From Candidatus Hermodarchaeota archaeon (GTDB lineage: Archaea; Asgardarchaeota; Lokiarchaeia; Sigyniarchaeales; SOKP01), in assembly GCA_048885525.1 (NCBI GenBank), contig JBHLLP010000003.1, positions 64,001 through 128,000 on the forward strand: 64,000 bases of DNA, given 5' to 3'. A program made the position numbers and the translations under genes. Shown here piece by piece: positions 29,645-35,469 of this stretch (its first letter is position 1; every line of letters begins with the position of its first letter). The notes below the pieces were generated by a model. The model was given only the letters and a program-made list of their open reading frames with translations, did not search any database and had not been told where the DNA came from.

Positions 29645-30562
29645 ATGTTCAAAGAGAAATTTAGTGAAGGAATAATTAGTGCTAAGCAATTTGATAGAGA
29701 AGATATTGAATATATTTTGAAAAAGGGGAAGGAAATGATTAATACTAAAAATTCAAATCTTCTTCAAGGAAAAATCTTAGCAACATTATTTTTTGAACCT
29801 TCTACTCGTACTCGTCTAAGTTTTGAATCTGCAATGTATAGATTAGGCGGAAATGTAATCGGATTCCATTCAGGAGATGTTTCTTCAATTAAAAAAGGTG
29901 AGAGTATTGCTGATACTATAAGAACAGTAGAAAATTATAGCGATTGTATAGTAATGAGACATTCGCTTGAAGGTGCTGCGAAGATGGCAGCGAAATTTAC
30001 GAGAATTCCGATTATTAATGCTGGTTCTGGAAGTGGAGAACATCCTACTCAAGCATTATTAGATTTATTGACAATAACAGAAGAATTAGGTCAATTAGAC
30101 GGATTGAATATAGGATTAATGGGTGATTTAAAATACGGTAGAACCGTACATTCACTAGCAATACTTTTATCAAATTTTGAAGTTAATATTTATTTCATAA
30201 GTCCAGTAGAATTAAAAATGAGAAATAGGGATAAAGATTTTTTACAGCAACGACATGTTAAATACAAAGAGATTACAGATTACAGGAAAATATTGAACAT
30301 TTTAGATGTTCTTTATATGACGAGAATTCAAAAAGAAAGGTTTGTTGATTCAGAAGAGTATGAAAGAATTAAAGGTTTTTACATATTTCAACAGGAAGAT
30401 CTTAAAGAAACAAAAGATGATTTTAAGTTATTACATCCATTACCAAGAATCACAGAGATTTCTCCTGATGTTGATAATTCAGAAAAAGCAGTTTACTTTA
30501 AACAAACTTTCTATGGAATTCCAATGAGGAAGGCACTCCTAGCGGAATTATTGACAGAATAA
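29645..30562 (+). CDS. pyrB: Aspartate carbamoyltransferase catalytic subunit
   Basis: FFEPSTRTRLSF, HPTQALLD, GDLKYGRTVHS, RIQKER, HPLP. Confidence 0.97.
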   Translation: MFKEKFSEGIISAKQFDREDIEYILKKGKEMINTKNSNLLQGKILATLFFEPSTRTRLSFESAMYRLGGNVIGFHSGDVSSIKKGESIADTIRTVENYSDCIVMRHSLEGAAKMAAKFTRIPIINAGSGSGEHPTQALLDLLTITEELGQLDGLNIGLMGDLKYGRTVHSLAILLSNFEVNIYFISPVELKMRNRDKDFLQQRHVKYKEITDYRKILNILDVLYMTRIQKERFVDSEEYERIKGFYIFQQEDLKETKDDFKLLHPLPRITEISPDVDNSEKAVYFKQTFYGIPMRKALLAELLTE

Positions 30563-30580
30563 TTTCTGAAATTCTATTTC

Positions 30581-32563
30581 TTAGATTAAGCATTCACTTA
30601 AAGAAATTGTACCTATTTTCGAATGAAATAACGTTTGTATAAATTTTTGAAACGACATTTCTTTTGGTTTTTTTTCAATAAATAAAGTCCCACCATTAAA
30701 AATTTCATCAAATTTTTTGATTAAAGTAATTCTTCTAAGCAGGGAAAGATTTGATTCTCTTCTGATTATCCTTGTGGAATATGCATTAATCTTTGGATTA
30801 GTTTTTACCATATTATTATACCAACAGTCCTTTAAATAGGTATCTTTATGAGGTTGACTTAGGATATAATTACTATTCTCAGCTTGATTTTTCTCATCGA
30901 TAATTTTTCTCATTAAAATTAAGATTTTTAATGCGAAATCTTCGCTATTTTCTGTTCTGTCAAGTTCTATTCCACAATGGTTTAAAATTGCTTCATTTAA
31001 ACCAAAAAAGCTAATGGATTTTATTGCATCTTTAAATATTTCAATCGAACTTTTGTTATAAATCCTTGTAGCTATGGATTCCCATTGTTTAAGAGAATTT
31101 AATTTCTTTTGTACCAATGACTCCTTAAATTTAAACAATTCGAATACAGAGTTTAATTTATGTTGTAATAGATCGAAAAATAAATCGTCATTTTGCTTTG
31201 CTTCTACTGAAATCAAGTGTAAATTAACTAAAATCTTATCTAAAATAACTATATCATTCTTGGGATTTTGTATCTGAATTAGAGATGAATTTAATAGACT
31301 AGAATAATCCTTATTGTAAATAATTAGCTGATCTTTATTATCATTACTGAGAAGATTTTTTATGATAAAGCTACTCAAATCTGATGAAAAAATTTTAGAA
31401 CACTCAAAAATAAGTAGTGGTTTTATGTGATTATTCTTCTGTTTTTTTAAAGAATTAAGAAAAATTTTATCTAATTTAATTTGATTTAAAAATTCCTCTG
31501 ATGATTTTTCATTGTAATTAAACTCTAATGATAAATGTGATTTACCATCATTATAGAGGGTATTAAATACGAGAATTTGAGAAGTAAAGAAATTATAATT
31601 GGATGATTGTATTTCTGGGAATTCTAAATAAGGAATAAATTGAGTATTAAAATCACTCAGAAGTAAATCCTCAGAATAAAACTGTTTTAATTTTTGTAGT
31701 AAATCTAAAAAATTCATGATTAAACTTGTATATTCTGTAGCATTTTTAATTCTCTGTGGCTCATTTGAATAAATTTTTGAAAGATAATTAATCAAGGTTT
31801 TTGAATTTATATACAAACTTAATGGTCTTAAACCCCAGTAATTTAAATGAAGTAAAGCAATTTCTCCCGTTAAATATAAATCTGCCAGGTTTTTTGGTAA
31901 GAGGTTTAAAAGTAAAAATTGCTCTGAAACGTCAGAACCTAATTTTTTAATAAATTCTTCTGGAGTAATCTCAGAATTTTTCGAATTAAATAGTTTAAAT
32001 GCTTCAAATGGAGGAGTTCCTAGCCGAGTTAATTTGTGTCTTACTTCTTCTAAACCATTCTCTAATAGTATTGCATTTATATACTCCCGCATTAATGGTG
32101 CAGTCATATATTCTATATTTGTTCTAGATAAACGCTCTTCTACCTCATGAGCTATTTGCTTTGCTAAATAACGCTCCAATTCACCCTCTCTCACTAAATA
32201 TTCCTCAATTTTTTTTATATCGAATACTTCTTTAGAGTATTTTGAAGTTCGGATCATCAGCGCCTTATTTTTTTTATTTAAAATTTGCTCAATAGATAAA
32301 ATCCTCTCGATAATTTGCTCTCCTAAATATGTAATTGAATATCCATCTTCTAATGATATAATTAAATCACTTTTCTTTAACGTGTTTAAATGGAAAGATA
32401 AGTTGCCAGAACTAAGATCAGTTCCAAAAATCTCTTTTTGAAGCTTTGAAAACGATAACGGAGTAGAACTATATTTTAATTTTTTTAAAATATCAACCCT
32501 TACCTTTTGACTCAGTGCTTTTAGTTGCTTTTCTAATATATTTTGATTTTTGTCGGTGTCCAA
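30581..32563 (-). CDS. ArsR-type wHTH + ATP-cone + degenerate class III ribonucleotide reductase (NrdD)-like protein
   Basis: KALS...RVDIL..L...SGNLSFHLNTL (ArsR); IRTS...FD..KI...TAPLMREYINAILLENG.EEVR...TRLG (archaeal NrdD ATP-cone); NrdD-like LLP...AD..LTGEI, GLNEA, NGG. Confidence 0.78.
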   Translation of the reverse strand: MDTDKNQNILEKQLKALSQKVRVDILKKLKYSSTPLSFSKLQKEIFGTDLSSGNLSFHLNTLKKSDLIISLEDGYSITYLGEQIIERILSIEQILNKKNKALMIRTSKYSKEVFDIKKIEEYLVREGELERYLAKQIAHEVEERLSRTNIEYMTAPLMREYINAILLENGLEEVRHKLTRLGTPPFEAFKLFNSKNSEITPEEFIKKLGSDVSEQFLLLNLLPKNLADLYLTGEIALLHLNYWGLRPLSLYINSKTLINYLSKIYSNEPQRIKNATEYTSLIMNFLDLLQKLKQFYSEDLLLSDFNTQFIPYLEFPEIQSSNYNFFTSQILVFNTLYNDGKSHLSLEFNYNEKSSEEFLNQIKLDKIFLNSLKKQKNNHIKPLLIFECSKIFSSDLSSFIIKNLLSNDNKDQLIIYNKDYSSLLNSSLIQIQNPKNDIVILDKILVNLHLISVEAKQNDDLFFDLLQHKLNSVFELFKFKESLVQKKLNSLKQWESIATRIYNKSSIEIFKDAIKSISFFGLNEAILNHCGIELDRTENSEDFALKILILMRKIIDEKNQAENSNYILSQPHKDTYLKDCWYNNMVKTNPKINAYSTRIIRRESNLSLLRRITLIKKFDEIFNGGTLFIEKKPKEMSFQKFIQTLFHSKIGTISLSECLI

Positions 32564-32832
32564 TTTAATTATTGACCCTGTTCTATTTCTTTAATTCTGT
32601 TTAACTAAATTATATGATTAATAGTTATATAAAAATTTAGGAATCTCCTAGCCGGTTGATGAATAAGGATAATATGTAGGTGATATCAGACCAAAATTTT
32701 AAAGAAACAATTTCATGATAAATCTTTTTTTTTAGAAATTAAAAATTGGACTACAATTTAATTTAATAAAAAAGAAATAAATATTTTTTATATTAGATAT
32801 TTAATTTTAAAATCAAGTAAAATGGTAATTTA

Positions 32833-33507
32833 ATGGCATGGAATGAAATAAAAAAAAAGTTAAGAATTGGAACTATTGGATTATGGGTTATTTTTGGATT
32901 AACTACCATCGTAATGGTAGCTCTTGTATTAGGAGATGTTTTTTCGTATGATGAGATTTGGATCCCGATAATTCCTATTGGCACTTTATTAGTATTAGCT
33001 ATTGCAACCACAATTGTGGATATTAAGTCTGAAAGGAAGATTAAAATCGGGATTGTTGGAATATGGACCATATTTGCATTAACTCTTATTGTATTCGCTG
33101 CGCTTATAATAGGTAAAGTTTTTCAACCCAGTGAATATTGGATACCTTTGATCCCTGTCGGAAGTTTGCTTATTTTGGCTATAGTTCCCACAATCTTAGA
33201 ATATACATCTGGAGATGTAAGATTTTGTCCTAAATGTGGAAAAATATATGCAAGAAAAGGTGGTTTTTGCCAAGAATGTGGTACAAGAATCCTTATAACT
33301 TGTCCTTCTTGTGGCACCAAAGTAAAGGGAAATCCTAAATTTTGTGTTAAATGTGGATCTAATTTAAGTGAGATGGAGATCATACAGACTCCTATATCCC
33401 AGTTTAAATTTAAAGCTGAAGGATATTCAGAAGTATGTAAACAGTGTGGAGCCCCAGCTAAACCAGATGCTAAGTATTGTGTATTTTGTGGATTTCAATT
33501 GTCTTAG
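32833..33507 (+). CDS. Membrane protein with two TM-hairpin repeats and C-terminal zinc ribbons
   Basis: Four TM helices in two similar repeats; six CxxC pairs (three zinc ribbons). Confidence 0.8.
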   Translation: MAWNEIKKKLRIGTIGLWVIFGLTTIVMVALVLGDVFSYDEIWIPIIPIGTLLVLAIATTIVDIKSERKIKIGIVGIWTIFALTLIVFAALIIGKVFQPSEYWIPLIPVGSLLILAIVPTILEYTSGDVRFCPKCGKIYARKGGFCQECGTRILITCPSCGTKVKGNPKFCVKCGSNLSEMEIIQTPISQFKFKAEGYSEVCKQCGAPAKPDAKYCVFCGFQLS

Positions 33508-33705
33508 TTCATCTATAATACAATTTAATTCAATATACAATCATTCTGGTATGACAGAAATACCTTTATAATGAAATTGTTTTCATTTTTTTATTTTTGG
33601 ACTTATAAGAATTGGACTCCTAATATTATAAATAATTATGAATTTGGTAGAAATTTATAAAAACTATTTTTCAATTAACTATAAAAAAAAAGGTATGATT
33701 TAAAT

Positions 33706-35469
33706 ATGAAAGATATTGAACAAATTGAAGAGCCTTACTTAATAGATACAAGTAAAGAGACTTTAAAAGAAGAAAAAGAATGGTTTTTTCAAATAGACTT
33801 TTTAAAAGTAGTAATGATTTTTTTAGTTATTTTTGATCATATGGTCCATTGGAACATTAAAAGTGAAATCGGTGTTACTCTATGGGAAAGAATCTCAATT
33901 CCTGTTTTTCTTGTAATTATGGGTTTTAATATGGGGAAATCATTTCAACAAGATGGTGATTTATCATTAAAGGAATTATATTCTTGGGGTTACTTTAAAC
34001 ACAAGATTTTGCGGTATATTTTACCATTTCTAGTTTTATATGCAGCATCAACCTTTATAGGGTTGTTTATGTATGGATTTAATCTCTCAAATATGTGGTA
34101 TGGGCAATTTTATCCAAATCATGGATTTATCCACTTGTTCATAGGATTCTTACCATTTTGGGGTCCTGGGAATTGGTTTATTCCTCTGCTCTTCCAATCT
34201 ATCTTAATCTTACCTTTACTCTACTGGGCATTTAGAAAAAAGCCAGTTTTAACATTAATTATATGTTTTGTTGTAGAGGTAGCATTACAATTAATGATAT
34301 TCTTCACAATTGGAAATATTGGATCTTATGAAGAATATCATATTCTCTATTTAATTATAACAAGTGCTTTATTTTATCTTCCCAGTATCGGTTTGGGGAT
34401 GTGGTTTTCTTTTGACCATGATTTAAAATCTAAACGAAATGTTTTTATGTGGATTTTATTTCCAATAAGTTTAGCATTTATAATAATGTATCAATTCTTT
34501 GGTTATAGAATACGGATTGATGGAGTACTACTTTTAAGAGGAGATTATCATTTCTTAATTATTCCATATTCTGCGTTTTTATTTTTGCTAGCATTGAGAT
34601 TCTTGCCTCAAAAATCAGAACAACCGATTTCGAGAGCTATTACCTTAATTGGAAAATCAACATATCATATTTTACTTACACAAATACTAGGTTATGGAAT
34701 GATTTTCGCTTTTTGGGGTACTCATTATATAATAGATATTGGGTTTCAACCCGATCAGGCACTAGATTTGATCATCGCTTGGATTTTGTTTATTTCATTT
34801 GGTGTCATGTGGTATAAAATAGACCAACAAAAGAGTGTTTTAAGGCGTGTTCTCTCCTATTTTAACCTATTTATAGTGTTTTCGTCAATCTTGTTTTTGA
34901 CATTTTGGGCTCAAGAATTATGGATCCCAATACCGCTAGTAATCATTATAATTTATGGAATTGCTGCTTTTATAACTAATTTTATTATTCAAAAACCACT
35001 TAATACAAAGATTCTGGCTTTTTGGACACAATTTGTATTGATTACGTTTATAATGATGGTTCTTCAAGTCGAAGTCATGCATCCTAGTGAGTTTTGGATT
35101 TCATTTATATTCATAATTGGATCGTTTATTGTAGCACTTATAGGCACTATTTTAGATACCATGAGAATTAGAGAATTGTTTTGGGGATTTTTCTTTCTAC
35201 TTTCAGCTTTTTTTATCCTATTCATATCTATTTATAAATTTTCTGTTTATATGGCGCACATTTATATATTATTATTCGAAGTTTGGGAATATGTTACAAT
35301 AATCGGATCAGTAATCATCGCGTTAGTGGCATTTAAGGCAACGGTTAATAGTTTTTATTTTTCGGATATAAAACCCATAAAATGGTACATTAAAGTTATC
35401 GTCATAGGTGCTGTGATATATAGTATGTATAACATTTCTTTAATATTTGAAATTCTTTCAAGATGGTAA
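33706..35469 (+). CDS. Acyltransferase-3 (OafA-like) family membrane protein with extra C-terminal TM helices
   Basis: IDFLK...IFLVIFDH, IPVFLVIMG, GNWFI, IGKSTYHILLTQ. Confidence 0.78.
   Translation: MKDIEQIEEPYLIDTSKETLKEEKEWFFQIDFLKVVMIFLVIFDHMVHWNIKSEIGVTLWERISIPVFLVIMGFNMGKSFQQDGDLSLKELYSWGYFKHKILRYILPFLVLYAASTFIGLFMYGFNLSNMWYGQFYPNHGFIHLFIGFLPFWGPGNWFIPLLFQSILILPLLYWAFRKKPVLTLIICFVVEVALQLMIFFTIGNIGSYEEYHILYLIITSALFYLPSIGLGMWFSFDHDLKSKRNVFMWILFPISLAFIIMYQFFGYRIRIDGVLLLRGDYHFLIIPYSAFLFLLALRFLPQKSEQPISRAITLIGKSTYHILLTQILGYGMIFAFWGTHYIIDIGFQPDQALDLIIAWILFISFGVMWYKIDQQKSVLRRVLSYFNLFIVFSSILFLTFWAQELWIPIPLVIIIIYGIAAFITNFIIQKPLNTKILAFWTQFVLITFIMMVLQVEVMHPSEFWISFIFIIGSFIVALIGTILDTMRIRELFWGFFFLLSAFFILFISIYKFSVYMAHIYILLFEVWEYVTIIGSVIIALVAFKATVNSFYFSDIKPIKWYIKVIVIGAVIYSMYNISLIFEILSRW

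Follow-up and report, generated by a model that had tools for sequence, protein, structure and literature searches.

RESULTS

A winged helix, an ATP-cone and a reductase body in one protein

This study concerns one gene of a Candidatus Hermodarchaeota archaeon, an Asgard archaeon whose genome assembly (GCA_048885525.1; G000 in our set) is 99% complete in 87 contigs. The window is the whole stretch of DNA that was analyzed, 64,000 nt at positions 64,001 to 128,000 of contig JBHLLP010000003.1. On its reverse strand lies an open reading frame (ORF) for a protein of 660 residues in which a winged helix-turn-helix (wHTH) is followed by an ATP-cone and then by a body related to NrdD, the class III ribonucleotide reductase (RNR). 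A sequence-only reading of the locus had proposed a transcription factor built from a dead NrdD.

That reading took the first 90 or so residues to be an ArsR-type wHTH, and this assignment held. Pfam finds a DUF7347 winged helix (PF24038) at residues 14 to 88 (E value of 7e-11; 42.6 bits against a cut-off of 27.6), and the ArsR-type models HTH_20 (24.4 bits, cut-off of 27) and HTH_5 (17.1 bits, cut-off of 22) match below threshold. In a separate AlphaFold2 model of residues 1 to 192, which covers the wHTH and the cone, the first half resembles the ArsR/SmtB proteins HlyU, CzrA and NolR, with target-normalized template modeling (TM) scores of 0.75 to 0.83 and root-mean-square deviations (rmsd) of 2.0 to 2.5 Å over about 95 residues. 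The modeled topology is that of the ArsR/SmtB fold, α1-α2-α3-α4-β-β-α5 with a recognition helix, and this helix carries the signature S-x-H-L-x-x-L, in which H58 and L62 are invariant. Apart from H58, residues 1 to 99 hold no Cys/His cluster that is conserved in the family.

The ATP-cone begins immediately past helix α5 of the wHTH, so that the order of DNA-binding domain and cone is that of the bacterial regulator NrdR. The cone had been described as well conserved. This is true within the family, but the domain has diverged from characterized cones: the Pfam match (PF03477, residues 103 to 174) reaches 19.3 bits against a gathering cut-off of 25.8, and a sequence profile search of PDB chains returned no cone at E values up to 1, which made a fold search necessary. 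Five homologs (P0153, P0171, P0203, P0174 and P0136) score above the PF03477 cut-off, at 27.9 to 33.5 bits. In the model, strands at residues 103 to 105 and 111 to 113 are followed by four helices, as in a cone, and the second half of the 1-192 model matches the cones of NrdR (9a6n, 9gex), LbNrdB (5olk) and S. thermophilus NrdD (9d3x), the last with an rmsd of 1.9 Å over 88 residues. Foldseek E values are weak for this two-domain query (at least 6e-3), so the argument rests on the TM and rmsd values.

The eroded NrdD segments that the sequence-only reading recognized behind the cone correspond to an NRDD match (PF13597) of 63.8 bits over residues 196 to 655. The match spans model positions 4 to 504 of 562, which leaves the last 58 or so positions, where the zinc site and the glycyl-radical loop lie, without a counterpart. 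Against the NrdD equivalog model TIGR02487, the protein scores 52.8 bits, far below the cut-off of 326. A full-length AlphaFold2 model, computed with an alignment of 92 homologs as input, has a mean predicted local distance difference test (pLDDT) value of 84.8, and its top Foldseek matches are all class III RNRs (E values of 1e-18 to 1e-11, probability of 1.00), among them the enzymes of P. copri (8p28), S. thermophilus (9dca), T. maritima (4coi) and phage T4 (1h79). The modeled body adopts the RNR barrel fold.

Loss of catalytic elements

The genome encodes intact reductases elsewhere. A real NrdD on contig C23 has the RPFC motif, a CCRKF finger loop, the CxxC...CxxC zinc ribbon and the glycyl-radical loop RVTGYY; the NrdG activase is on contig C62, the 64-kb window having none, as had been noted; and contig C27 carries a class II-like reductase (nrdJ) with an ATP-cone and an NPCGE motif. 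We used the real NrdD, which is about 20% identical to the 660-residue protein, as the reference for the catalytic sites. RPLS in the 660-residue protein aligns with RPFC, so that the second active-site cysteine is gone, as the sequence-only reading had seen, and no cysteine stands opposite the thiyl-radical cysteine of the finger loop. In P. copri NrdD, an HxHD motif binds the triphosphate of the substrate (PMC11226230). At that site the real NrdD has GDIHVHM, with the HxH, and the 660-residue protein has GEIALLH. The conserved NxN flap is missing as well, and the C terminus ends ahead of both the zinc ribbon and the glycyl-radical loop, in the alignment as in the Pfam match; their absence had also been predicted.

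The loss is not peculiar to this copy. We aligned 13 members of the family and 7 distant homologs, and both catalytic cysteines are absent from all of them, which speaks against a recently decayed gene among relatives that keep the Cys and Gly motifs. The long forms of Jordarchaeia, Baldrarchaeia and a Culexarchaeon (TACK) retain the zinc ribbon together with a degenerate glycyl-radical loop (RNIGPY, RLTGAY or KNLNTY), and their cysteines are gone; the Odinarchaeial form has lost the zinc ribbon too. On these features, the older relatives line up as a graded decay series from an enzyme-like ancestor. As judged from the alignments, the 660-residue protein is a catalytically dead descendant of NrdD, as is every homolog examined.

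Distribution and conservation of the family

Database searches returned 481 homologs. The best 120 are all 596 to 671 residues long and contain both PF24038 and PF13597; they were deposited either as 'anaerobic ribonucleoside-triphosphate reductase' or as an HxlR/ArsR regulator. Relatives are encoded in 290 GTDB species genomes, and the best 80 loci are all from Asgard archaea save one (L078, DATKTW010000033.1), which is filed as 'Candidatus Nanopelagicaceae bacterium' and is probably mis-binned, since it shows the full Asgard gene order around the gene.

The sequence-only reading had called for a survey of Asgard and TACK genomes. We sampled 101 Asgard genomes evenly from 23 families, each genome at least 85% complete; exactly one copy is present in 33 genomes from 7 families (f1, the GTDB family of the window, 18/19; f3, 2/2; f9, 3/3; f10, 1/1; f11, 2/2; f21, 5/6; f26, 1/1), and a Culexarchaeon also has one. 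In the same sample, no relative was found in f13 (0/10), f31 (0/20), f19 (0/7) or f16 (0/5), among others. The short form of 650 to 675 residues is confined to the family of the window; the other families have forms of 712 to 780 residues.

Over 80 species-level loci the protein is single copy, with 47 to 75% identity, and conservation is unevenly spread along it. Column conservation is highest in the ATP-cone with its linker (0.80) and in residues 191 to 250 (0.80), followed by the wHTH (0.71); it is lowest (0.44) in residues 251 to 435, the region of the finger loop in real NrdD, and reaches 0.49 in the last 85 residues. Helix 201-221 and strand 235-247, which belong to the predicted dimer interface, are highly conserved. 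Across 92 sequences, the invariant positions include R105, R159, E160, N163, R175 and R180 in the cone and linker, in addition to the two in the recognition helix. This pattern indicates that the gene is under purifying selection and is not decaying.

A conserved box at the gene start

The 130 nt upstream of the start codon are far more conserved than the identity of the protein would predict. Over 78 loci they contain a promoter block with a TFB recognition element and TATA box (BRE/TATA), flanked by two further blocks that we call A and C (Table 1), and a nine-nucleotide box, CCGACAAAA, follows just inside the ORF. Of 81 loci, 71 have the exact 9-mer at position +8 of the ORF, and 62 of 72 loci use GTG or TTG as the start codon. 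The third codon invariably reads NCC, even though the residue that it encodes varies (Ser, Ala, Thr or Pro). The fourth is GAC in all 73 cases, whereas 83% of the Asp codons in these genes are GAT. In five loci the ORF was called from a downstream ATG, and there the readable upstream sequence fits the motif outside the called ORF; in one of them (L075) the full 9-mer lies ahead of the ATG in another frame. The codon bias and the motifs outside called ORFs argue that the constraint acts on the nucleotides. A count over 948 kb of related loci gave 75 occurrences of the 9-mer at the start of this gene and 3 elsewhere.

Blocks A and C are specific to this promoter. In genome-wide position weight matrix (PWM) scans of the source genome, block A scores 31.6 here and 19.9 at its next best site, and block C scores 32.8 here and 18.7 at its next. 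We had considered both as markers of a regulon and rejected them, as the scans find each at this promoter only. The two blocks could be the protein's own operator. The sequence CATATTAT is present in both, about 60 bp apart, flanking the TATA box. An Rfam search of the leader gave only a chance-level C/D-box match (E value of 0.65).

The box upstream of reductase and replication genes

The same box recurs at genes for DNA precursor synthesis and replication. In the nrdD leaders of 22 loci from the window's family, CCGACAAAA is the sole conserved element apart from the TATA box, about 63 nt downstream of it. At nrdJ, about 10 of 30 loci have the form CCGA(C/T)AAAA at -36, about 62 nt past a TATA-like block, and in the source genome a second copy, CCGACATAA, lies at -263. 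The box is also found 205 nt upstream of orc1/cdc6 in this genome, and most of 29 orthologous upstream regions carry a CCGACA(A/T)AA variant. The source genome has 28 copies of CCGACA(A/T)AA, of which 10 are intergenic, compared with an intergenic share of 12.6% of the DNA; three of these 10 precede nrdD, nrdJ and cdc6.

Across lineages, the box may track the short form of the protein: in forward orientation it is absent upstream of nrdD in four genomes without the family, and it is missing as well from three genomes with long-form homologs. This tracking is only suggestive, because the samples are small and GC content differs. The box is also absent from the gene-start region in the Jordarchaeial, Baldrarchaeial and Culexarchaeial loci. 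Other copies in the source genome lie ahead of genes for a major facilitator superfamily transporter, a heliorhodopsin (490 nt away), an M29 peptidase (at +8) and a TFB (324 nt away), and we take them to be chance occurrences. A further copy of CCGACAAAA (C6:77309; L140:1075-1287:+) lies 65 nt upstream of a gene for a ribbon-helix-helix (CopG-type) protein of 70 residues.

Genomic setting

The gene order is shared over 80 loci: rpoA'-rpoA''-L30e-nusA-rps12-rps7, then the gene for the 660-residue protein on the same strand, then a convergent pyrB, and L44e. The names rps7, rps12, pyrB and L44e were tested individually; rpoA', rpoA'', L30e and nusA we take from the standard archaeal operon order. 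Typically 136 to 300 nt separate rps7 from the gene, which is therefore probably transcribed from a promoter of its own. In the window this interval contains two inserted genes; it is empty in most related genomes, and others have one to three such genes.

The convergent arrangement with pyrB that the sequence-only reading described is found in all 80 loci, and in 79 of them the two 3' ends overlap or lie less than 45 nt apart. The pairing, with pyrI adjoining, is also seen in Baldrarchaeia and Culexarchaeia (L211, L212). We considered whether the protein might substitute for PyrI as a partner of PyrB and ruled this out: a normal pyrI is present on contig C14 of the source genome, and in the Baldrarchaeial and Culexarchaeial loci pyrI stands beside pyrB.

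Table 1. Features at the locus (positions in the window)
Feature	Position	Strand	Details
Whole ORF	30581..32563	-	660 residues, TTG start; wHTH, ATP-cone and dead NrdD body
wHTH, residues 1-99	32267..32563	-	ArsR/SmtB-type winged helix, α1-α2-α3-α4-β-β-α5
ATP-cone, residues 100-180	32024..32266	-	Divergent; beta hairpin and four helices
Linker and NrdD-fold body, residues 181-660	30584..32023	-	From PF13597, AlphaFold2, Foldseek and alignments
Box CCGACAAAA	32548..32556	-	+8 to +16 of the ORF; candidate operator or RNA element
Block C, TATTATTTAGTTAAGCAGAATTAAAGAAA-like	32586..32613	-	Around the expected transcription start and 5' untranslated region; at least 90% conserved, 78 loci
BRE/TATA promoter block TTCCTAAATTTTTATATAA	32625..32643	-	Column conservation at least 80 to 90%, 78 loci; about 70 nt upstream of the box
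Block A ATATCACCtacATATTATc	32667..32687	-	At least 90% conserved, 78 loci
pyrB (aspartate carbamoyltransferase)	29645..30562	+	Pfam OTCace_N and OTCace; convergent, gap of 18 nt (30563-30580)
Inserted genes	32833..35469	+	Double-zinc-ribbon membrane protein and acyltransferase-3, between rps7 and the gene

DISCUSSION

A candidate regulator of DNA precursor supply

The idea that a pseudoenzyme here regulates transcription gains support from the RNR fold, the loss of catalysis, the conservation of the wHTH, cone and dimer helices, and the box common to several genes. The reading that we favor, and hold to be somewhat probable, is that the 660-residue protein is a dimeric, ATP/dATP-sensing regulator of deoxynucleoside triphosphate (dNTP) and replication genes and a functional analog of NrdR, with binding to nucleotide and DNA inferred from its domains. 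In this model, the NrdD-like body would keep its dimer interface, in line with the homodimer prediction described below, and so join two ArsR-type winged helices and two ATP-cones. ATP or dATP on the cone would change how the protein oligomerizes or how its DNA-binding heads are placed, and an effector bound at the dimer interface, where the enzyme had its specificity site, could contribute. The protein would then bind or release CCGACAAAA some 62 to 70 nt downstream of the TATA box at its own gene, nrdD and nrdJ, as well as upstream of orc1/cdc6, so that dNTP synthesis and the initiation of replication would be tuned to the nucleotide pool, with the protein acting either as a repressor or as an activator. 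Because the box is common to the reductase genes and a replication initiator gene, the protein is probably an undescribed switch that ties DNA precursor supply to replication. A bolder version, which we entertain tentatively, would make it the master switch of a small 'S-phase' regulon, in which the surviving allosteric sites read ATP/dATP and both RNRs, the gene itself and orc1/cdc6 are controlled via CCGACAAAA. This would be an archaeal counterpart of the eukaryotic co-regulation of RNR and CDC6 by winged-helix factors at G1/S.

The comparison with NrdR is one of function only, and the protein is no member of the NrdR family. Both have a DNA-binding head directly followed by an ATP-cone, the cones match in fold, and in both a regulatory site (here a candidate operator, proposed from sequence conservation) is common to RNR genes and the regulator's own gene. 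However, the head of NrdR is a four-Cys zinc ribbon, whereas that of the 660-residue protein is an ArsR-type winged helix with no such zinc site; the 660-residue protein carries an additional dead NrdD body of 480 residues; and NrdR binds paired 16-bp boxes, in contrast to the single asymmetric 9-mer downstream of the TATA box. With class III NrdD (T4, T. maritima, P. copri, S. thermophilus and the enzyme on contig C23), the protein shares a homologous ATP-cone, the 10-stranded barrel, a linker of the form TRLGxP (TRIGMP in the real NrdD) and a predicted dimer via the same helices, but it lacks the thiyl-radical cysteine, the second cysteine, the HxHD motif, the NxN flap, the zinc ribbon and the glycyl-radical loop, and has gained the wHTH. 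ArsR/SmtB repressors (HlyU, CzrA, NolR, BigR) share the topology and the recognition-helix signature of its head. Those repressors act as small independent dimers and respond to metals or thiols, whereas here the sensor would be the ATP-cone and the pseudoenzyme, and dimerization probably comes from the NrdD body. Trigger enzymes and pseudoenzyme regulators such as BirA and PutA offer a further parallel, in that an enzyme scaffold with ligand sites controls transcription. Unlike BirA and PutA, which are still active enzymes, the 660-residue protein has lost catalysis, and the parts that it has kept best are allosteric, namely the cone and the helices of the dimer interface.

To our knowledge, the control of dNTP supply in archaea is largely unknown. 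The NrdR model TIGR00244 has no match in the source genome and finds NrdR in only 1 of the 101 sampled Asgard genomes, and the family thus offers a concrete and testable candidate for this role. If the proposal is right, this is a transcription factor with a dead RNR subunit as its sensor, in which the parts with the allosteric sites were kept while the catalytic elements were lost, and the box ahead of orc1/cdc6 hints that the closest prokaryotic relatives of eukaryotes couple the initiation of replication to the supply of precursors. There is also a practical consequence for annotation: the NCBI label 'anaerobic ribonucleoside-triphosphate reductase' can falsely imply class III RNR capacity, as in the g6 genomes and the closed genomes G135, G138 and G143. 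Our literature search found no paper on the combination of wHTH, cone and NrdD body or on DUF7347; a Tn7 preprint mentions nrdD solely as a transposon attachment site (10.1101/2025.07.27.667033).

Several observations weigh against regulation of these genes by the protein through the box. The exact 9-mer is not over-represented in the genome (18 copies, about 17 expected). The box is kept at nrdJ in only about one third of the loci, was found in the window's own GTDB family alone, and is absent near nrdD and near the homolog's own gene in three other families that have long-form homologs. A dimeric wHTH protein would not usually have a single, asymmetric site such as this; another factor could bind it, or it could act in the RNA. 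The cone is below its Pfam cut-off, and where canonical cones carry K-R it has R-T, as does the real NrdD of the same genome. Finally, the regulator model accounts neither for blocks A and C nor for the conserved convergent pairing with pyrB.

Several of these points favor an alternative that we find rather doubtful, namely that the gene is itself a member of the regulon and another factor (an Orc1/Cdc6 paralog, a small ribbon-helix-helix protein or an RNA-binding factor) reads CCGACAAAA. The wHTH and cone would then be used otherwise, for instance in nucleotide-dependent binding to chromatin, an origin or RNA polymerase, or in a role linked to pyrB. The single, asymmetric box would fit such a factor, as would its presence ahead of orc1/cdc6, which also encodes a DNA-binding protein with a winged helix, and the promoter-unique blocks A and C could be the real operator of the 660-residue protein. 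The gene also lies directly past the rpoA-L30e-nusA-rps12-rps7 block, and its convergence with pyrB, invariable over the 80 loci, reaches Baldrarchaeia and Culexarchaeia, where the gene-start box is absent. Yet Orc1/Cdc6 is universal and the box is not; the box was found only in the family with the short form of the protein, and not in other families with different long forms, as co-evolution of a factor and its site would predict; and a DNA-binding head joined to an ATP-cone has one known use, in NrdR, which controls RNR genes.

The sequence-only reading had also offered an inactive partner of true NrdD, that is, a subunit that heterodimerizes with the enzyme and modulates it allosterically. 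We now consider this unlikely. The source genome does have a real NrdD and NrdG, and few parts of the protein are as well conserved as its NrdD-type dimer helices. A homodimer through these helices was predicted for residues 185 to 660 with a score of 0.74 (best of three controls, 0.00), a contact agreement between runs of at least 74% and a partner pLDDT of at least 81, the interface taking in the conserved helix 201-221. Among proteins of known structure, 20 of 30 solved as pairs of a single chain type attained the mark for a homodimer, as did 1 of 23 that were solved as single chains. As NrdD dimers have already been solved, the result may be due to resemblance to those structures and not to dimerization of the 660-residue protein. 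Against a partnership, the only NRDD match in two genomes of the sister genus (G158 and G159, 99% and 98% complete) and in three closed genomes of a neighboring family (G135, G138 and G143) is a weak one, and it is the homolog of the 660-residue protein itself, in divergent form in the three closed genomes. With the real NrdD of the source genome as query, no match was found in the sister genus (0/4 genomes). The presence of the homolog where real NrdD was not found argues against an obligate heterodimer partner of NrdD. In addition, the gene never adjoins nrdD in 80 loci, and a partner role would leave the invariant ArsR-type recognition helix unexplained.

That the protein is still an enzyme, using its barrel for other, non-radical nucleotide chemistry, is highly improbable: an NLH strand, GLNEA and SQPH are retained and conservation is 0.63 to 0.66 over residues 436 to 575, but both cysteines, the HxH, the NxN flap, the zinc ribbon and the glycyl-radical loop are lost, the finger-loop half of the barrel is the least conserved part of the protein, and N447 is the sole invariant residue of the barrel among the 92 sequences.

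Other NrdD variants in Asgard archaea

Other unusual NrdD-related frames were seen in the course of the survey. In a genome of another Asgard family (G082; L220:466-2886:-), an ORF of 806 residues contains a complete NrdR module, zinc ribbon and ATP-cone, in frame with an NrdD body. This body retains the active-site cysteines, and the frame stops just past the first C-terminal CxxC; the radical domain may have been split off or frameshifted. In a sister genome, the TIGR00244 match likewise lies within a frame of 809 residues. The fusion of an NrdR module to an NrdD body in one lineage means that a DNA-binding head on NrdD arose at least twice.

The source genome also encodes a second dead NrdD paralog of 601 residues, without a wHTH (contig C57; L002:709-2514:+). 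Its ATP-cone hardly differs from the cone of the real NrdD; RPFS replaces RPFC, and the finger-loop cysteine and the C-terminal radical domain are missing. Copies of this type, 600 to 630 residues long, are present in many genomes of the window's family, two of them with an in-frame TAA; the paralog may be either a duplicate in decay or a subunit with a regulatory role. In some related genomes, nrdD or nrdJ lies within an open frame of 1100 to 1690 residues (e.g., G154:C45, G157:C21, G161:C119 and G159:C238), a length that suggests inteins.

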